A DNA stretch of 56,590 nucleotides, filler included, from Sphacelaria rigidula (taxonomy: Eukaryota), in the NCBI GenBank assembly GCA_964200075.2. It is 4 parts of 4 records of this genome, joined end to end, with 100 filler letters (N's around TTAATTAATTAA, not from the genome) between each part and the next. Parts side by side here need not be neighbours in the genome. Positions count along the whole stretch, not along the records: positions 14,177 to 28,252 come from CAXNAA020002473.1; 3 more parts are not named here. One strand, given 5' to 3'. The notes below the pieces were generated by a model. The model worked only from the letters and a program-made list of their open reading frames with translations, ran no database searches and was not told the DNA's origin. Positions 14,077 to 42,523 of the stretch are shown here, one piece after another. The translations under genes were made by a program, and so were the position numbers. The first letter of the stretch is position 1; each line of letters begins with the position of its first letter.

Positions 14077-14176
14077 NNNNNNNNNNNNNNNNNNNNNNNN
14101 NNNNNNNNNNNNNNNNNNNNTTAATTAATTAANNNNNNNNNNNNNNNNNNNNNNNNNNNNNNNNNNNNNNNNNNNN
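14077..14176. other. Artificial contig spacer (44 N + TTAATTAATTAA + 44 N)
   Basis: TTAATTAATTAA places a stop codon in all six frames. The identical spacer recurs at 28253 and 42424. Confidence 0.97.
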
Positions 14177-18176: not shown

Positions 18177-21100
18177 ATGTGGGCTCTTTCCAACTCTGGA
18201 GGTATCCAGGTTATTCATCAGCAGCACATCAGCGACCCCGCGCGTCTCGGTGCGCCGCCGACCACCGCAACCACTTCACGCAGACTTCTCCCGATGGCCA
18301 CAGACACGACTCACGGGGCATGTGGTAGCGCAACAAACAACGTCATGCCTAGGGTTTCGTGTGTTTCCACAACATCGCCATCTTGGCAGCAGCAACAACG
18401 CAGGACTAGCACACGCAAGCAGCTTCAACAATCTGTCGAGGGGAGCAGCCCGCGCACCGCGGTAGCCGACGCAACGAATATGGTATGCAGTAAACGTGCC
18501 GCCTTCGTAGCCACCAGCGTTGACCTTGATAATGAGGCCGCGCGCCAGCAAACCTCCCCAGCGCCGAGCAGCTTGACGTCCGTTTCAACAACACCAGCAC
18601 CAACAGCTGCATCTGTCACAGACACGTCCTCGGCCGGTTTTTCGATCGGTTCGACCAGCACCAGCACCAGCAGCACCCCCAGCGATCGCGCCCTGTTTTC
18701 TCCTGACAACAGCAACAGTGCAACGACTACACCACCATCTATTGCTGCTGGCCGCGGTTGCGAGGACCCCAGAGGATTCGACACCGAAGCCCTTTTGCTT
18801 GAACCCTTGCTTCCGTCCCCGAGATCTCATCACAAGGGCACGAGCTCAAACAAGGTGCATTGTGAAAATCAATTGTCACTGGGGGCGAGCGAAGATTCGT
18901 CGTCAAACAACACCAGTGGCATGAGCTCGTCTTCTCACCACAACTCGAGTGCTGAGTCGGCCGCAGTGAGCGCTGGCTGGCACAACCACGGCGCCGATTC
19001 GACCTGTGCATCATCTGCTTCCTCGGCTGTGTCTACTGGTGGTATGTCGGCAGGCGGAAGCGGCAACGGCGCTGGACTGCTAATTCCTGTTTCTCCAGCG
19101 CTCACGGCAGGGCACCAACGGACCGGGCCATTTACCCCGGTTGGAGAGTCTCGACTACGTTCGCAAGAGGTGGGTGGAAATCTTGGTAGCAGCAGCAGTG
19201 GTAGTCAGCAAAACAGCAGTGGTTGGTATCTCAACCTTCCGCCACATGCTCAAGCGCAGGCTTTCGAAACTCAGAAGCAGCAACAGCAATCTATCGCTGG
19301 TGCTTGCTCCAACACTTCGGCCAACACGGCAGCTGCCGTGGCAGCAGCCGCGGCCAATGTGGCCGCGGCGATTCATCAAGCCAGCATGCCGTTCTCGGCG
19401 ACATCATCGTCGACGTCTTCTCCAGGCCTCTCCCAGCAGCAACACATGTCTGTGAACCGGCCGTCATCGTCAAAATTATCTCCGACTGTGGCATCAACGA
19501 CGTCTGCTCCCGGTGCTCGTCGGTCTCCCTCTGCATGGCAACGTGCTGCACTGGAAACTCATGTTCGCAGCGTGACCGCGGCCGACGCTGTCAGCGGCGG
19601 GATCCCGCGCGGCGGTGGCGGTGATGGCGACAACAGCACCTCCGTTTCCCACAGTCGACCGAGATTTGTCACGAAGGAAGAGTGCCTGCCCGGTGCTCAC
19701 ACGGCGGCTCGCGGTGGCCCCATGCATGCTACGGCCGCGGCCACCAGCATCAACGACAGCAACCCCTCCCCTTGGTCCACTGCGATGAAGCAAGAGGTTA
19801 CCGCCTCCTCCGCCAAGCGCAACTTGCAGGGCGGGCTCAACGAACCCCAGGCATCGTACGCACGCTCTTGCTCCCCCGCCAGCAGTGGCGGCGGCCGCGA
19901 GTTCTCCCTGAGTCCTGGCGGAGGCGGCGGCGACGCCTCCGGCGACGAGGGCTTCAACAGCTGGCAGCCATCATCGAGGGCCAACAGCTTTGGTGAAAAT
20001 GGAACAGGGGTGTCACGCCCTGGCAAGCGGATGTACGCGCAGGTCACGCCTTCGCCACGCGCGGTCGGCGCCGGTGGAGCCATGCATACTATGAGATCGT
20101 CTCCGTCAGGTTTGAGGATTGACGCTGTGGGTATCTCCGCCGACAGCGGCGGTGATAACAAGCGAGCGAAGACCTTTGGCTCCACCCCGGACAGTTCCGC
20201 ATGGGGCAGCAACTTTGACAACGGCAACAAGCACGGCGGATGGGGCAGCGCTGCTGCCATGATGAATACCCATAATCAAAGCTACGCCGCAATCTCCCCC
20301 GAAGAAATGCACAGGGTTTCCCCCGCGCAGGTTCCTGATTCCGTGAACAACACCAACAACCGCCGGCGCCGTTCCGCTCGCAGCGTTGCCGGAGCCGCCT
20401 CCGTCCAGTCGGCAGCCGCGCTGGAAGCTGCATCCGGACCGCTGACAAGCATCAAGCGCGACGGCAGCTCGACGGAGGACGACGAGAGCATCGGAGGGAG
20501 CGGTGACTCTACGCGGGACTGGACCGAAAGGGACTCTGACGAAGAAATGGCGGCGGCGGCCACCGGCGGCGGGGGCGACGGGGGCGACGGCCGCGGGGCA
20601 GTGGCGGGCAAAGCGGCGGCGGCAACCTGCGGCGACGGCAAGGGCTCTATCAAGGCCTCGAACAAGGTGCCCTTCAAGCTCGACCCGAGACTGTGGGTCG
20701 TCGTCGAGCGCCGTGCTATTTGTTCGGCCAAGCAGTGTGCGTACCGAAAGTGAGTATTTTACATAGTTGCGTTTGGGTTTGATCGTCTCACAATAACATG
20801 CACGTCTGCACGTATGCTCTCAGCTTCGTTAGGTCGTACTGGTGTGATTTCCGGGTACGATAGTCAACGCTCGCGGCGTTATCCGAGACCCGGACCGAGC
20901 AGGGAAGTCGTCTTTCGTGTGCATCGCTCGCCTCAACTTCGGGCATTCTCACCACTGTGTTCCTGATGGCATGTATGTGATTCTGAACCTCTCGTGTTTG
21001 TCAACAAAAGTTGAACAATGCAGTGCCTCCGTGACAGTCACTACTGCTGTCACGTCTATCGTGCATCGTGCGCGTTCCTCATCATCCGCATAACACACGT

Positions 21101-21528
21101 GAATTTCTAGTTGCTTCCGACGTTATGCAGTGTGATGTTCTTTCGTTTTCCACGATGAAAACAACTATGCGTCTTGAAATGTCGGTACAGCGAAGGTGTG
21201 AAGAGTCTCCCATGTGCATACCACACACGAAACACGGAATGATGCGCACGTTGTCCTAGGAATTACGGGAAACACAAGTTAACGCGCCCGGAGAAACGGT
21301 CTCAGCCATCAGTACGTACACCATGATTCCATCGGTACTACAACTAACTTTGCCCCCCCCAACCCCACCCCACACACAAATACGATGTGGCTCTGACGAT
21401 CCATGCAATATCACCTTGCTCATAGTGCCTTACATGCCACAACACATCAACTAAATACTAAAGTACCCCCTTCGATACCGCCACTCCCCTCCATTTGTTC
21501 CCCGCCCGACTACGGTTGCGACCGTCGG

Positions 21529-21567
<39 letters not shown>

Positions 21568-24500
21568 TTCGTGAATTTCAACAGCGAGGAAGATCACCGT
21601 GCTCGTCGCCGGCACTACCATGCCCTCTGCAGCCATGTGCACCAAAACGGAGAGCGCAAGGGAATGCGATTCCAACACCATCAGGTGTGCGGTATGCACA
21701 GATGAAATATGTCCTGAAGTTCTCGCTAAATCTTCAATTTTCTTCCTCATATCTGAGTCTACAAAAACTAAAAAATGAAAAGTAGAGTAAGAGGTCTGTG
21801 CATGCAGCCCCGGTACGCACCCCGATGTTGTTTATTTGTACTGCCGTGTCCGATGTCTAGTCTGGTCGTTGTTCGTGCGAAGAAAATCATCATATTTCGA
21901 CCCATTTCGCTCTATTCAACTACTTTGGTGGTGCGGGGCAAATCTTATGGAAAGGGATGAGGAGCAACACGTGACGTCTCCATCGCGAATGTTGAGCGCA
22001 CCATGGATGGCGGCATACGACCGCAAAACAACGTGCACGAGAGGCTGCTTGAAGCTTGCAAACATTGGTTGGTTCTCCACTTCGCAAACGGCTATTTTCC
22101 TTCCCTTTGCTTGCCCTTTTGCGATACTTATCCATGCTCACATATGTTCATCTCTCCTGCTCCTGCTTTGCGCGCCGCACCGAACAGCTGGAGAAGGTAC
22201 AGAAACACCAGAGGGCACACCAAGTGACTGCCAAGCAGGTGTGTGTGTTTGTGTGTGTGTGGTGTTGTCCAACACCGCGGAAAAGAGGGTTGCTAAATTG
22301 TAGGGTGGTTCCTGAGAGTATGTCATGTTTGTCACCAGCTTCTTCCCGGTGAGGATTTCGGTTCCTGTTTCTACATGAGCACGGCAGAAGCTCTCCTTGT
22401 TTTTTCGCGAGCTGTCTTCATCATTTTACTTCTGCTGGCATGTGACCCTCCCGACACTACTCTCCTGTTGCCTCGTTCGTTGTTGTGCATTTCGTTTCAT
22501 TTCCTTCGTCCCCTCCCAGAACTCGCAGCGGTCCAACGTGGTCAAAACCCGCTCTCCCTCTGGGTCACCTGTAGCCCGCTCCAAGCGCTCGTCCACCACA
22601 AATGGCATGCGGGAACAGACACGGGCGATCAAGGACGCTAACGTGAGTAACTACACCGTAAACCGAGTAACATGTTGTCTTGCTTGTCTTGTTTACACAA
22701 ATAGGTTTCACCGCAGTCGCATCACGAAACCATTTTTCATCAAAGTGGTGTCTTGATCTCTTTCTTACAGTGTATCTGTATCCCCAATCAACATGAAAGG
22801 TCAAGAGATCAAATCATGAAGCGACGATTCCGAGTTTCCTCCTTCTTCGCCCCCCTTCCCGCACACACATGAAACGATTTCGATCTTCCCGTAATCTAAC
22901 CCTCGACTTCAATCCATCTGCACCGGCCGCTCGCGCACGTTTTTGTGTACCAGGTGGAAGCGCACAGTCCTAAGGACTGGACGCCAGAGCTTACCAAGAA
23001 ACTTCAGACCCTTGTCGATGAACTGGGTGAGTAGCTTAACACGTGAACCAACCGGAGGATGCAGTGTACAGTCACCTTGTTTTCACGAGTAGCCCCGGGG
23101 CGTGTGTACAGCTAACGCCATAGGTGGGATCAAGATGGGATTATCCAGGGTTGACTTTCAAGTGTACTTGTGACGTGAGCAATATACCCACCTCTCCGCT
23201 CGCCCTTGGGATTTTAATCGAAGTGCCTTTGAATTGAAGTCCACCCGTCCTCTCCCCCGTTCGCTCTCGGGAACAACCCAGGGCCCAAATGGTCGGCCAT
23301 CGCGGAACGACTCCCGGGTAAAACTGCCACCGCGTGCATGCTGCACTGGCGCGTAGGGCTCAACCCCCACCACATGGTCAAGGGCAGCGGTACCTGGACT
23401 GCGGAGGAGGACGAGCGTCTTTCAAAGCTCGTGGAGGTTGTGGGCATGAAGGTGAGGTTTTGTTTCTGCTGCAGTTACTCGTTAATGAATAACGACGAAT
23501 CGGCCTTCGTATATTATGCCGGTTGGACAACTTCACTACAGTGTAGCAATTCGTACGGTGGGAGCGAGCGAACGCGTCTTTGGAAGTCTGGACACTTTTG
23601 GTGAAAATCCAGTGTAACTAACCTCCTACTTCTTCCTGCCGTCGCTTGCTCTGAAAACGTCCTCAGTGGTCCGATCTTGCCCGCCACATCCCGGGCCGCA
23701 TCGCGAAGCAATGCCGTGAGCGATACCTCAACCACCTCGACCCGAGCCTCCGCAAGGACATGCCGTGGACGGAAGACGAAGAGGCCCTCCTCATGCGCCT
23801 ATGCTTCGCGAAGCAGAACCAGGTGAAACTTCCCTCCCTACTTCTTGATTCATCTTTGCTGCTTGGTCCAATGCCCTTGCGCCCTCTTTTTTTTTTTCAG
23901 GTCCGGGGACACACTCCTAATCGACCCTTCCCCCCTCCCCTTGCCTTGCCCCAATCTCTCAGTGGGCGGAAATCTGCCGTCAGTTGCACGGCAGAAGCTA
24001 CAACGATGTGAAGAACCGCTTCAACCTCATCCAGCGCAGAAACAAGCGCGCCAGCCTCAACCCCGCCCCCCCGCAGCTGCAGCCGCAATCCACATCCAGC
24101 GGGGCCAGGACTCCTGCATCATCTTCGTCATCCACGACCACCGCCACCTCCGCTGGCAGCCGAACCCCTCCCATCACGCCGAACACATCCGGCGACATAA
24201 CCCCTACGAGCACCCCGTTTCAGGCCCAACAACAGCAGCAACAGCCGAATAGTGTGTGGGGCATGGCCACGAGCGCTTCTCGCCCCACCGCGCGCCGCAG
24301 CGGCAGCGCCGCGGCGATGGAAAACCGGAGTATCGGTGCCATGGGCTCGCGCGCAGGCATGCGCGGGCCGTCTCCCGTCGGCGGGAACGGAAACACCACC
24401 CCGTTGGCGGTGCAGACCAACAACGCGCCTAACGGTTGGGCGGCGGCGGCGGCGACGGCGGTATCGCAGAGACGTTCCGTCGGCGGCGGCGGATTCCCGA

Positions 24501-25114
24501 GCCAAGGCAATGGCGGCAACGGCATGAACATGACAATGGGCAGCCAAAGCAATTTACAGTCGTTCTCGTCCGGTCGTCCCGCGCCGACTGCTGCTGCGGC
24601 GGCTGCCGTGGCATCCATCAACAACAGCAACAGCAACAACAACAACAACAACAACCCGCAGCAGTCCTTCGCTACCCTCATGGGAGACGAGCTAGGGGAC
24701 TTTGCGCTAGTCGACGCCAATGATCTCGGGGGCCCGGGAACCGGCTTCGCCCCCGGCGGCTACTGGCACCAGGTCGTCAAGGAAGAGAGCCCACAAAGAC
24801 GTGCTCTCGGCGGCGGAGGTGGAGGGGGCGATGTCCCTGACAACATGGACGCTTTCTCGGGGTTGAGTAGAGCCAGCGGAGCCGGAGGCGCTGCCGCTGC
24901 CGCCGCTGCAACCCCCGGAGGGTCGCTTATGTCAATGCCGGCCGCCTCGAATTCAGCGAACAATGGTGGGTCTCCCCTCATGGGTGGATCCATGAGTTTC
25001 ATGGATGGAGACTGTGGATCGGCGGGGCTGGGTGGGGAGGAAGAGGGTGGTGTCAGGTTACCGCCTCCGCCGCCTCTTGGTGTGACCGGGTCATCCTCCA
25101 TGGATACCTTGTGA
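18177..25114 (+). CDS. Three-repeat (R1R2R3) MYB transcription factor, ~1465 aa, with an upstream Cys/His zinc-finger-like module
   Basis: Eight phase-consistent GT-AG exons: 18177-20749, 21585-21684, 22188-22238, 22520-22642, 22954-23026, 23282-23451, 23667-23822, 23963-25114 (4398 nt including stop). Spliced repeats: R1 WTPELTKKLQTLVDELGPKWSAIAERLPGKTATACMLHWRVGLNP; R2 WTAEEDERLSKLVEVVGMKWSDLARHIPGRIAKQCRERYLNHLDP; R3 WTEDEEALLMRLCFAKQNQWAEICRQLHGRSYNDVKNRFN. The start codon is taken as the first in-frame ATG of the 876-aa ORF. Confidence 0.92.
21532..21563. repeat. (TG)16 microsatellite in MYB intron 1, just before the acceptor
   Basis: Read directly from sequence. Confidence 0.95.
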
Positions 25115-28100
25115 AACCAGCTGTCGGCAGAAAACTTTCGTGTCCTTTGCCAGGGTGTATGGCCCACGAGTACCGTTGATGTCCTTTTTGTTTCTCTTAT
25201 ATGTTCAAAGAGGGCAGGATTATGTGTTTCATAGACGTCCACGTCGTTTCCCGTCCCGTCGTCAGCGCCAGCGGAATTTTGCGGTCTGTGTTGGGGATGG
25301 GGGGGGAAGTTGTGTGATGTGGTTCAATGTCATCTCGTCCCTGTGGATATGAAGTGCTGTGGATGTGTTCTGTGTGTGTCTGAGTGTGTAATGGTCATGA
25401 AGACAGCCATTTCGCCATGAACATCGTATTTTATCGTGAGATGACTTATTGTGTACAACTATTACAGCGTACTTTTTTCGTGCATACCCTTGAAGAGTTG
25501 ATTGTACATGATCGACATACAGATGAAACCCGGCTTTTTGTTTTCGGAGTTACCAAAAGAGAAAAACAAGGGGAAGATATCATATGAAATGGGATGAATT
25601 AAGTGAAAATAGGGGGGGTGGGGAGACAACGAGGTCATTTGCGGCCCCCATACACAACGAGTAGCCGGCGTGATGATGTGGATGAAAGGCAACCTGCTTT
25701 TCGTTTGTTGTTTTTTCCTTGATTAATTTTCGCCCGGGATATTTTGGTATCATGTTTTTTTTGTAGGAGGCGGTCATTTCTTCACTGAATGGTTGCACGA
25801 ATTGATTGCGGGAAATTGCACGAATCACGAGAAAATAGTACCTGCTACAGAAGGAGGTACAGAAGGAGGTTGAGGCGCGACGTCGTATTGCCGATGTTCC
25901 CCCTTCTCTGAGCGTGGGTGCTGTGTTTGGTCAGTCTAGGATGTTGTGGTTATATACCACACTGTACGTCGACCAATTGCACTATCCCTCGACTAATTGC
26001 GGATGGGTTGAGTTGCAAATTTGCAAGGCATTCTTTGGAGGGTTGTAACTCTCTTTTTCGTCCCTCAGAGAAGTAGGGAGGGTCAATCACGGGGGGTGGG
26101 CGGGTGAGGATATTGGGAAGGATACTCTCTCCCAGAGTAAGAGTTGGAAGGAGACTGTGGAATATTGGGCATCGTGAGTTGTTTCCTTTGCGTATATCGC
26201 AAAAAAAAGTCGATTTTGATGAGTATATGTATGTATGATGATTTTCGTGTTGGAGTCATCGTTGAAATCGTCTTTGCTTGTTTTTGCCTCTGGATACAGT
26301 ACGTTCGTACTGAAGGTGTACCATAGACTTCTTTGACACGAGTAGATGTTATGGATATGCTGCACGTTTGTACTAAAATCGTAACATAGAGATGCCACGG
26401 GTGGATAAAATCTTTGGTTTGTATAGTGAAAACTGTATCGACTGTGTTATACATATAAATACATTGCAAATGAAGGAGTTGCACAGAACAAGAGGTGGTC
26501 CCATGTGTATGTATCATCATCATCATGCTTTGATCTGAGCAGGCGGGCGTTTGAATTTTACTTTTCGTGAGATGCATTTCTTTTAGCCAAATTGTTGGAA
26601 TAATTATTGCGTTCTTTTGTTTATAGTTTGATTTTAGTTTCTTTTTGGCCTAATTTTTTCGAGAAAGCTCGGATTTTTTCTTTACTCGAGATGGTCATGT
26701 TCGGGTGGTGGTGAAGAAAACTTGAATGTTCTGACACTTTGTCTGCGCCCTGTACCGTTTGTCTCTTGAGCTTTTTGCAAAATAGGCATCGATATTCATT
26801 CAAGATCCTTCGATTTCCGATGGTGGATTGGTAACATTAGCATGACTCACGTAGGTGACACATTCCGCATTTTTCTTATAGGAAGCGGGATCCAGATTAC
26901 CTGTACCACTTACCCCCACGCACCAGTAGATCCGTTTCGGCGACGAATGAGCGTACACATACCTGCAGAAATATCAGTCATTGCACATTAGCATTAGCGG
27001 TATATCGGATCTGTGCTGGGCGGCGCATCTCGTACCAGCGCAGCGGTCATCCGGCATGTGTTTGATCTAGAGATGATCTATTGTGTTCTGTCGGTACATA
27101 TGGGGAAACAGTTGTAACGGCCTGTGTGCACGAATTTGCTACTGAAGCCTCGGTGAGAAGGTGGTAAAAAGGTCCACCGTCGTTTTGTGGTGCAGTGTGT
27201 GTGTTATTTTCGGCTGTGTGCTGTAGTATGACCTTAGAAGGCGGGCGAACAAAATGAGATGTATGGGGGGCGGAACATGACCTTCAGTAAGTAGTCTGTC
27301 CGTGATCTTTGGTAACGTACAAATGCACCACCGGCGTGAAGCCGTGTAAGGTATCTTCTTTTCCCCCCTCCCCCTTCGCTATATCCGTATTTTAGTGCAT
27401 GATGCTTATGGATAGGATGGGTGAAAGAGGTACGCGAGGAATCATGTATTAGTTCTGGAATTCCCTCCTTCATCCTTTCAATTGGAGTATATATGTGTGT
27501 GTGTGCGTTCCGAGTGAAGCTGGTGTCAAGCAGCCAAAAGGCGACGAAGGGAGGATGTGGCAGCCATCTGTTATATATATATATTATATACGGAGCGGTC
27601 GTGTGGCCATTGTGAATTGTTGGTGTGGAAGTGTACTGACGAGTGGAAGGGCAGAGTTCGGGATGGGGACATACGTATGCTACAGGGAATCATCAGCAAA
27701 TGCAATTGAACAACTATCTAACAGGAATATTGATGAGGAGAAATATTGATTTCGAAACTGTTATTTCATTCCTTCATCTTGTTTAGGTCGGCACGCCTTC
27801 TTCCTCTCACAACGATGAGTGTGAAGCAAGCAAGCAACCGGTCAGTTCTTCCTTTTATCATCACTCTTCATTCCTGCCGTCTACTTCATGTTGCTAGACT
27901 GTCAGTGACACTTGAACCCCAACACCCGTGCGGAAGGAAGGAGGCGTTTTCGCACAAGTGAAGCGAGTCGGTGGTACATGCATGAAGTATCCATACTCGT
28001 ATACCCAGCGGAAAATCATCACTACTACTATTATTGAAGAATGCAGTGGGAGCCCAGTTGGAAATCATGAAGTCGTATTTTTTCAATTTCCGTCGTGTCG

Positions 28101-28252: not shown

Positions 28253-28352
28253 NNNNNNNNNNNNNNNNNNNNNNNNNNNNNNNNNNNNNNNNNNNNTTAA
28301 TTAATTAANNNNNNNNNNNNNNNNNNNNNNNNNNNNNNNNNNNNNNNNNNNN
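28253..28352. other. Artificial contig spacer
   Basis: 44 N + TTAATTAATTAA + 44 N. Confidence 0.97.
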
Positions 28353-32500: not shown

Positions 32501-35500
32501 AAAATAACAAAAGAAACAGCGTGTACAACTTGCCAGTATTATTTTCGAAGACGTTGCTGAACACCATGTTGTAGTCGCCCCCGAGTATGATTCGGACCCC
32601 GGTGTGCTGGTTGACAAACCTGTTGTCGTGGATCATGCAGGCTTGAGATTCCATGATTGACACTCCAGCGTGTGCGTTGTCGTGCACGTAGTTGCCTGTT
32701 TCACAACACGAACGCAGTCGGGGAGGTGCAAGAACATGGAAGAAACTCCAGAGTTGTTGAGAGACTCCGTCCTCCCCAGGGTGTTTCTTTCCACCACGAG
32801 CGGGAACGAAAAACAACTTCACCACCGCAGCGGAACTTGACTCTTTCCACAAGGACCCCCAGCGGCAAAGGCCCTATTTTTCTGCGCAAAAAAGGGATCA
32901 TCAATACAAATATTATGGTTCCGATGGCGACTTCGTAGCCCAAGTTGAATCCTTGACTCGTGCAAATATCCCAGACTCACGAAAAAAATAATATCATAGG
33001 TTTGGGTCAGGCTTATTGACAGGGTCAGGGTTCGGATTGTGTTTTTTTCATGACACCACACGTCGACGCGATCGTCAACAGCTCCCAGGGCTACGTCAAA
33101 GTCAAGTCCTGTTCACCCATCCGATACCTCCGTGTTCCGTGTACGGAATGATTTTGCGTGGAGGACTTACGGGAGAGTGAGAGGAACATCACACCCATTT
33201 TGGGTTTCGTCACTATGGCACGGTACGAACAGGCGAGAGAAGAACACACACGAACAAACGAGAATGAAACAACGCACCGAACGCTGCGCTGTAGTCGCAG
33301 CCACGGTGGAAGTAGATACCGCTTTTTTCGTTGTTGTACACCTCGTTGTTGAAGACCTGAACATTGTTGCAACGCTTGGAGGCGATTATCCCTGCATGCA
33401 ACCGCCATGCAACGCAGCATTTGTAGCAGCAGAAACCACTCAGACACAAACAGACACGGTATTTTATGCATGGTTGGGGCTAAAGGACTGCATTTTGGAC
33501 GGTTCTAGGAATACAACACAAGTAGACGGGACGAATGTGCGGAAATATGAACAATAACAATAACAATAATAATAATAATAACAAAAATAAAAATAAAAAT
33601 AAAAAGCATAATAATAAGCATAATAATAAGCATAATAATAAGCATAATAATAACGATGATGATAATAATAATAATAATGATAATAATGATAATGATAATA
33701 ATGCAACAGCATGCCCAGCCTACGCATCCATTGTGGCAAGAGTGACGGCTGGCAGTGACGAGCAACAACCAAGTGAGAAAAGGGTCATCACCATAAACGA
33801 TGAGGAACGCGGAATACCCACCATGGTTTTGGTTGTTGTAGACCTTGTTGTGGGAGATGGTGAGGTAGTCGCTGTCATCGTGGGGGTCGAATCTGATATC
33901 CCGTGATGAGCGTTCGGTGCAGTTTCCCCCCGAAATTGTCCGGGAATTGCGGCACCACAGTGCCAAAACAGCAGTATGATGGCACAAGAAACAGAGAATA
34001 GTGTGAGAACACGATGGGTGGACGTATTGACAACGTTCGCTTACATGTAAAAGTACAGGCCACTCCTGAACCATGCAAAATCTCAGGTGAACTTAGTACT
34101 GTAAAAATCGAGAACTCCGGATGAAGCCTCCACGACGTCGCGATTCCGGCGACGTAGCCACCGCTAGCAACAAATCGTTGACCCTGAGAACTTGTCACGT
34201 GGTAACTGGTGTGCTCCTTCAGCTACGTTTAGTTGCTACAGTATGCCTCTGCAATAAATCAAATACGACGTGCATACAACCTTTGGTTAAAGATACAACT
34301 TCGGTGAAGGGAGCAGCGGGATGCCCAGAGTGTCCAACGTCCGTTAGCCTAGACATTCTGAGGCTGTATCGGTCACGGCAGCAGGAATTTTGCCATTCGC
34401 GGCACTTCGTTGCGATCAGCAGCCGGACAACATGTTGTCTCGAAGAGAACAGGAATTGCTCTTCAAGACTCTGGAGGTTACAAGTCTAACCACGGGCCGG
34501 GTGTACTAACCATGGGCGGTGGCATACCTGAACTCCTCAGCAGAGTAAGGGACGAATACTGAACTCACCCGTACTGATGGTTGTCCCGCATGATATTGTA
34601 GCTCCAGTTGCCGTCCTGGTGGCCGAAGCTGTACATGCCTGACCATTCGTCGGGGCAACAGAAGATCGAGCTCGATGGTTACATATACACGATAGATGTC
34701 TCTCACTGTACCATACTATTGAGCAAAAAGAGGGTTCTTTGCGAACAGCTTCAACAAATGGATCCTCTTGCCAATTTTCTAAGAGTGCGCGAAAAGAGGA
34801 TGTATTTCGGATTGCTTCTGCTGTACAAATCCCATACCCTCACAGATTCAGAATTTGCACAGCAGAAGCTGCTCGAAATAAATCGTCACTTCGCCCGTCA
34901 ATTCATCCAGATATTGGGCAAAAAGATAACTAATTGCGAACAGCCTCAGCTAGAGGCTGTGCAAGTCCCACATACTGTACCGTGATTGGCGTATCAGATT
35001 CGAGAGGCACACGAAATTGTTAAAAACTCATCATTTTGCCCCCCGACTCACATGTCACTCGAGGCAATGAGGGAATTCCCAAGAGCGCGTGCTGCCTGCA
35101 AATCCCATACACTGACTGCGAGTGTATGTCCACACGACTGAGCTCAGCTGTGGTAGTGGTGCGGCTACAGCATTTATCTCCCTAGACTGTACATGACAGT
35201 CCTGGAAACCCCGTAGTCCCGTGCTTACCGACACGACAGCCACGATAACAAGATATAGCAGGGCTATCGCCACAACAATACGCACGGTATGGTGCTGTAC
35301 TGGACTCTACAGTACCGTCCAGAAGAGCACCATAACGTGCAGATAGGTGGGGTGGCCTATACACTAAAGAGTTAGCACGGCGGCATGCGCTATACGTATG
35401 GCAATACAATGCGGATGCTTGTCAGTTTAGATATGGGTATATGGGGGTGTTGTATACCGTCATGTAGCCGAGGGAGGTGGATCGTTCGTTTAGAAAATTC

Positions 35501-42423: not shown

Positions 42424-42523
42424 NNNNNNNNNNNNNNNNNNNNNNNNNNNNNNNNNNNNNNNNNNNNTTAATTAATTAANNNNNNNNNNNNNNNNNNNNN
42501 NNNNNNNNNNNNNNNNNNNNNNN
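42424..42523. other. Artificial contig spacer
   Basis: 44 N + TTAATTAATTAA + 44 N. Confidence 0.97.

Follow-up and report, generated by a model that had tools for sequence, protein, structure and literature searches.

An Unannotated Putative Zinc-Finger Family Fused to a Three-Repeat MYB Protein in Brown Algae

Introduction

Complex multicellularity arose independently in brown algae. In the accessible text of a survey of their MYB proteins (PMC8854648), they possess more three-repeat MYBs (3R-MYBs) than animals or plants, with at least fifteen ancestral orthologue groups, and their 2R/3R MYBs mostly consist of a DNA-binding domain only, embedded in disordered sequence. The stretch of DNA analyzed here (the window) comprises 56,590 nucleotides (nt) of Sphacelaria rigidula (GCA_964200075.2) and carries a 3R-MYB gene in which three spliced exons assemble a Cys/His module ahead of the MYB repeats. 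The questions raised by this locus are whether the module is a true domain, whether it is a Castor-type finger as the initial annotation had proposed, and what it may add to a MYB factor. That the module is a real conserved domain is practically certain; it represents an unannotated putative zinc-finger family and, with the repeats, a new MYB architecture.

The Module and the MYB Repeats

The gene is formed by eight exons and seven GT-AG introns, which give a single open frame of 1465 amino acids (aa) with one terminal stop, ending at 25114. The initial annotation had joined the first three exons into a Cys/His pattern fused to a c-Myb-type 3R-MYB. Its residues were recovered exactly, with GT-AG introns and a frame open to 25114, and the fusion proved to be spliced, conserved, and predicted to fold.

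The module has approximately 68 aa and is opened by an L-D-x-x-L-W motif (20679-20696), whose Trp is present in 28/28 rows covering that position; it therefore starts about 40 bases before the point first assigned to it. Its candidate ligands are C849, C854, H868, H870, C873, H875, H877, H898, and H902. There are 54 residues from the first Cys to the last His and 30 from C873 to H902, and H902 is separated from the first Trp of MYB R1 by 55 residues, as had been estimated (~55 aa). Fifteen Lys/Arg are found in the module versus seven Asp/Glu. The ligand pattern, strict or loose, appeared in 0/5000 shuffles of the protein, but it was drawn from the sequence itself and thus the conservation data weigh more than this control.

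Three MYB repeats were located as three stretches of PF00249 (E 9e-41 on P0009), and the MYB part aligned with c-Myb (1H88) across R1-R3 (E 4e-32). The c-Myb recognition motifs KQCRER (R2) and N-x-x-K-N (R3) are kept in the orthologue P0005 aligned to 1H88, and the same residues are found in the window model. Three tandem repeats with the R2 and R3 recognition motifs are shared with c-Myb, B-Myb, and MYB3R (PF00249; 1H88). Unlike these proteins, the DNA-binding domain is positioned in the C-terminal half, behind a low-complexity arm of ~830 aa, and the Cys/His module and a pre-R1 helix stand before the repeats.

AlphaFold2 prediction of the module (pLDDT 83.8, pTM 0.67) gave a confident, small, beta-rich fold closing in one helix (63-76), which carries both helix His. 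The model of P0005 (677 residues) shows three helical MYB repeats and reaches high confidence only at ~191-270 and 300-480. In the initial annotation, the module was the only ordered-looking segment in ~950 disordered residues. Disorder was modeled on P0005 and not on the window protein, and a few short conserved motifs also occur in the N-terminus.

The splice evidence comes from four of the eight listed runs, X1 and X2 from one study, X8 from another, and the DNA-like X5; the RNA status of X1, X2, and X8 is a tool guess or unrecorded, and no run is on record as RNA. The introns are skipped in X1, X2, and X8, that is, in two studies, and retained in X5. Of the seven joints, six were recorded in each of the RNA-like runs X1, X2, and X8. 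Among them are 20749/21585 and 21684/22188, the two for which transcript support had been sought, and both are absent in X5. The joint after exon 3 is unlisted, as rows at a repeat there were dropped, but a contig of 1508 nt bridges it with the expected length.

Conservation of the Module

Independently annotated orthologues with the same spliced module ahead of MYB were found in Pylaiella littoralis, Ectocarpus sp. CCAP 1310/34, and two EukProt records. In comparisons with three orthologues, identity was 62-64/68 (91-94%) in the module and 140-142/151 (93-94%) in the MYB domain, versus 57-76% in the linker, 7-26% in the N-terminus, and 20-23% in the C-terminus. By these identities, the module is conserved as tightly as the MYB domain.

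A second paralogue group (Ectocarpus sp. 12, Scytosiphon promiscuus, and Discosporangium mesarthrocarpum) has a module 57-62% identical and also carries MYB repeats. Discosporangium is a member of an early-branching brown-algal order, and therefore the module was joined to MYB, and duplicated at least once, probably before the brown-algal orders diverged. All named carriers of the module are brown algae, which is the range over which the stramenopile architecture suggested in the initial annotation is supported.

Searching 1.84 billion representatives with a profile of seven sequences gave 84 proteins at E<=0.001. Many of these consist of a fragment from a single exon, and a TPR protein among them is a false positive (scan of 64/84). 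In a pattern census of 92 collected proteins, 38 rows in 37 proteins were found, all members having come from a profile that rewards these Cys/His residues. Two of these proteins (P0032 and P0039) match only via apparently intron-derived cysteines, so that 35 remain. For alignment A3, near-duplicates, two long-insert rows, and copies without the seventh His were excluded and 31 rows were kept, a choice which makes the "invariant" H48 partly a selection effect.

The resulting consensus is L-D-x-x-L-W-x8-C-x4-C-loop-H-[YFW]-H-x2-C-x-[H/C]-x-H-x2-G-x3-G-x2-F-x3-Q-x-[ED]-K-x3-H-Q-x2-H. In the 31 aligned rows, both opening Cys and both His of the H-x-H are invariant, with Tyr (21), Phe (7), or Trp (3) between the latter. 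The loop usually has 12-13 residues but reaches 69 and 138 in some members. The sixth ligand position is His in 31/38 and Cys in 7/38 pattern rows; such a swap is typical of metal ligands and hence is counted in favor of zinc binding. The seventh is His in 36/38 rows and is lost only beside Cys. The spacer ahead of the His-x3-His pair is 20 residues in 37/38 rows. The conservation of the Cys/His residues applies to the nine ligand positions, and does not extend to H862, H889, and H890.

Two conserved regions outside the domains were also observed. In the low-complexity N-terminus (18177-20680), the orthologues keep the short motifs L-L-L-E-P-L-L-x-S-P-R-S (leucine-rich), R-F-V-T-x-E-x-C-x-P, and an acidic S-P-D-W-x-E-x-D, which are candidate sites of co-regulator docking or phosphorylation. 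Near the C-terminus (~24680-24785), the motif L-M-G-D-E-L-G-x-F ... G-F-A-P-G-G-Y-W-H-x-x-V-K is common to the orthologues; it holds the sole further predicted helix in P0005 and is possibly an activation or interaction motif.

Paralogues and Architectures

The module makes up a separate family that includes paralogues as well as tandem and MYB-less forms, a point which the initial annotation had missed. The counts of family members and architectures are lower bounds.

Pfam MYB matches lie downstream of the module in 21 of the 35 proteins. In 22 aligned proteins, the last His is separated from the first MYB Trp by 19-134 residues, with values of 33-36 in ten of them. Most module-bearing MYBs also have a helix and an A-G-[VA]-E-x-x-x-P-x-x-W-like motif just before R1 (22598-22980 in the window), which may be part of an enlarged DNA-binding unit.

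Several of the 14 proteins without MYB are fragments, and the end of P0026 resembles the start of a MYB repeat. On the other hand, P0047, P0049, P0054, and P0058 start with Met, have net acidic N-termini, and end 4-9 residues past the module. These four and P0033 form one branch (support 96/90); the five are MYB-less, of 168-347 aa, and end in the module with a common H-P-E tail. The short proteins are possibly a hidden transcription-factor family.

Tandem copies reach at most two, in P0045 and P0056 (neither with a MYB match) and in G000:C10987, some records being incomplete. In the genome of S. rigidula, module exons are present in at least five genes: the window gene and those on contigs C1903, C15035, C14524, and C10987. 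The module of C1903 is accompanied by R1-R3, whereas C14524 shows the first exon part only. In C15035 (L004, 5123-5434 and 6410-6456), a glycine-rich insert adds ~50 residues to the module loop and the sixth ligand is Cys; this type of insert recurs among the relatives found by the profile. The gene on C10987 (L024, 1315-1455, 2589-2655, and 7396-7530) has at least two divergent modules in tandem, with no MYB match on its contig of 8.5 kb, and its first copy is degenerate with altered His spacing.

Possible Function and Relation to Known Zinc Fingers

The module very probably binds zinc. Two zinc ions would be held by eight of the nine Cys/His residues. In site one, H898 and H902, one turn apart on the helix, would close the site as in classical C2H2 fingers, together with C873/H875/H877. 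In site two, C849 and C854 would pair either with H868/H870, as in Castor, or with H870/C873, as in a PHD knuckle.

As to the role of the module, its sequence inclines us toward DNA contact as the main one. The helix would touch DNA because the base-reading positions of C2H2 fingers are conserved: at -1, +2, +3, and +6 from the first helix His, Gln is found in 26, Glu/Asp in 30, Lys in 30, and Lys in 25 of the 31 rows, respectively. The same contact is suggested by the basic character of the domain and by its being the sole recognizable domain of short activator-like proteins. The layout of the four Met-starting proteins, with an acidic N-terminus and a terminal module, resembles by analogy that of a simple activator whose DNA-binding domain is terminal. 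Among PDB sequences, the module profile matched best the helix of 1MEY, a designed consensus zinc finger (E 0.012; in register at -1). Language-model neighbors of one MYB-less member include C2H2-type clusters at 0.84-0.87, which is a lead only.

Nevertheless, the module differs from classical C2H2 fingers (PF00096; 1MEY; SWI5 finger 1) in lacking the C-x2-4-C-x12-H spacing, in being twice the size, and in that its helix site starts with C-x-[H/C]-x-H ligands. C2H2 families of Pfam were matched by 0/31 members at E<=10, and the C2H2 pattern (C-x2-4-C-x12-H-x3-5-H with core Phe/Leu) was found in 0/92 collected proteins.

The protein is thus read as a c-Myb-type R1R2R3 factor with an extra, independently folding metal-binding domain of ~68 aa, of a family outside the searched libraries, whose finger extends the MYB site; this reading is favored slightly. 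R2R3 would bind an AAC-type core, given the kept KQCRER and N-x-x-K-N motifs, while the finger, tethered via the pre-R1 helix, would extend or sharpen the site and the disordered arms would recruit co-regulators. AAC-core elements (MBS/MSA) are the binding sites of 3R-MYBs, which have a role in the cell cycle. The two DNA-binding modes proposed in the initial annotation would follow from this arrangement. More tentatively, the module, with its nine Cys/His ligands, could represent a class of zinc finger that binds DNA sequence-specifically, is so far undescribed, and was missed by profile surveys. On its own it would provide DNA binding in a small, hidden transcription-factor family; its fusion to R1R2R3, prior to the divergence of the brown-algal orders, would have made part of the expanded 3R-MYBs bipartite regulators with new target specificities.

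A zinc-binding module may instead serve protein interaction or chromatin reading, with a C2HC site (C849, C854, H870, and C873) and a second site from the other His/Cys. Several points speak for such a role. The aromatic-H-x2-C element is like the knuckle of PHD, extended-PHD, and LIM-type fingers; its H-x2-C spacing is the same in 31/31 aligned rows, and the His is preceded by Tyr/Phe/Trp. A pocket could be shaped by conserved Trp and Gly positions, the linker to MYB varies in length, and mutations of CASZ1 fingers also disrupt protein partners, according to the available text of PMC4695013, which shows that fingers are able to act in this way. On the contrary, the module is His-rich, has no C-x2-C pairs (its first pair is C-x4-C), and has a C2H2-like helix at its end. 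Among Pfam families, neither PHD nor LIM was matched by the 31 members at E<=10; 13 families were hit by single members, for instance zf-RING-like by one member at E 6.3. Also, the exposed helix positions are conserved and basic, and the module stands as the sole recognizable domain in the short MYB-less members. Such a role is considered doubtful.

The Castor motif opens with C-x4-C...H-aromatic-H, continues with H-[FY]-H directly followed by C-x4-C, and closes with H-x3-H. The module shares with it the opening, with Tyr, Phe, or Trp as the aromatic, the close, and a similar repeat length, and it is found in tandem in the three cases above; in that respect it could be a remote Castor/CASZ1 homologue with a remodeled second Cys pair. 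Its 54 residues are near the 58-61-residue period of CASZ1 fingers 1-4 calculated from coordinates in the available part of PMC10377389. In the accessible portions of PMC10377389 and PMC10696751, however, CASZ1 fingers are TFIIIA-class C2H2 fingers of 23-26 residues, which reviews place in arrays of 5 or 11. The module has one or two copies as against these arrays of 5-11, and shows neither a TFIIIA-class finger, nor a Cys directly after the H-x-H, nor a second C-x4-C; the residue after the H-x-H is Ala/Ser/Pro/Thr in 37/38 rows. Its spacer is ~10 residues longer (~22 residues separate the sixth ligand and the last His pair, versus ~12 in a TFIIIA-type finger), and it has an upstream Trp motif and a MYB fusion. 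The Castor pattern occurs in 0/92 collected proteins and in 0/84 profile matches, even though repeat proteins sum their scores, as with the TPR false positive (presence of CASZ1 in the library being assumed). Remote kinship with Castor is unlikely. The Castor-finger label given initially is not supported by these descriptions and the motif, which the first half of the module does resemble.

Binding of RNA in the manner of matrin/U1-type fingers, which would couple MYB to transcripts, is very improbable. Least probable of all is a switch on MYB that senses redox state or metals (Cu, Ni, Fe) in place of structural zinc ligands: the ligand set is His-rich (six His and three Cys, with one spare residue) and one subtype has an extra His-rich run before the helix, but this run is not conserved (His in 19-20/31), and structural zinc sites are usually recognized by such features as fixed spacing, a His/Cys swap, and a His-x3-His helix.

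The EsV-1-7 repeat, as described in the available text of bioRxiv 10.1101/2024.02.19.579948, is a short, cysteine-rich putative zinc finger enriched in brown algae and their relatives. The module is likewise a lineage-enriched putative zinc finger of brown algae, but unlike EsV-1-7 it is His-rich and tied to MYB. No EsV-1-7 match in Pfam was obtained among the 31 members, with the presence of an EsV-1-7 model in the Pfam copy being unconfirmed.

The module is absent from the Pfam copy searched. In its main text, the survey of brown-algal MYBs (PMC8854648) has 0 occurrences each of the terms "zinc finger" and "C2H2", and a literature search, with subscription papers and InterPro and CDD entries outside its scope, found no description of the module. 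Within these sources, the architecture is undescribed, as the initial annotation had suggested. A conserved extra domain on several 3R-MYB paralogues offers a testable reason for their functional divergence despite alike MYB recognition residues, and short MYB-less members would escape domain-based surveys of regulators. The module is small, well modeled, and present in Ectocarpus, which makes structure, binding, and knock-out tests feasible.

Gene Structure and Other Observations

The window consists of four contigs of similar size, with N gaps at 14077-14176, 28253-28352, and 42424-42523; hence, the sequence across the gaps is not a true genomic neighborhood. The MYB gene lies wholly inside the second contig (G000:C2473), and its features are given in table 1.

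Table 1. Features of the module-bearing MYB gene in positions of the window
Feature	Positions	Strand	Support
Exon 1, coding part, aa 1-858 (long low-complexity N-terminus and module start)	18177..20749	+	884-codon open frame; RNA-like contigs from 18083, small holes
Module part 1: L-D-x-x-L-W (W840 at 20694), C849 (20721) -x4- C854 (20736)	20679..20749	+	
Intron 1, 835 nt, GT-AG, phase 2, in the variable loop of the module	20750..21584	+	Joint in 3/3 RNA-like runs, not in X5
Exon 2, module part 2: H868, H870, C873, H875 (His or Cys in relatives), H877	21585..21684	+	
Intron 2, 503 nt, GT-AG, phase 0	21685..22187	+	Joint in 3/3 RNA-like runs, not in X5
Exon 3, module part 3: C-terminal helix with H898 (22206), H902 (22218)	22188..22238	+	
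Exon 4: basic linker and predicted helix (~aa 935-947) ahead of MYB R1	22520..22642	+	Helix 295-307 of orthologue model; motif in most MYB fusions
Exon 5: MYB R1 start (D957 at 22975)	22954..23026	+	
Exon 6: remaining R1, R2 start	23282..23451	+	PF00249 E 5e-13
Exon 7: remaining R2 (KQCRER), R3 start	23667..23822	+	PF00249 E 6e-11
Exon 8: R3 end (to ~24037), low-complexity C-terminus, stop codon	23963..25114	+	PF00249 E 0.005
Start of long 3′ untranslated region, which extends past 25800	25115..25800	+	Contigs of 2914-3098 nt (X1, X2, X8) cover 24667-25800 and continue

The 3′ end of exon 3 was inferred from the length of the RNA contig (exon sum of 347 nt versus a gap of 346 nt, with one ambiguous base). 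A possible alternative 5′ splice site is located at 22224-22238, as the orthologue models P0006-P0008 are without the last five codons. The longer form is present in the window gene and in P0005, and the RNA contigs agree with it.

P0009, a partial NCBI protein of S. rigidula, matches aa 870-1385 of the window model with 100% identity. It begins within the module, and thus the public gene model halves the domain.

In intron 7, two single-base differences between the window and the DNA-like X5 occur at 23873 and 23883, beside a T run. On another contig of the window (33505-33906), there is a long trinucleotide-like repeat with poly-Asn/poly-Ile frames, adjoined by a minus-strand frame which resembles the coding sequence of another gene.

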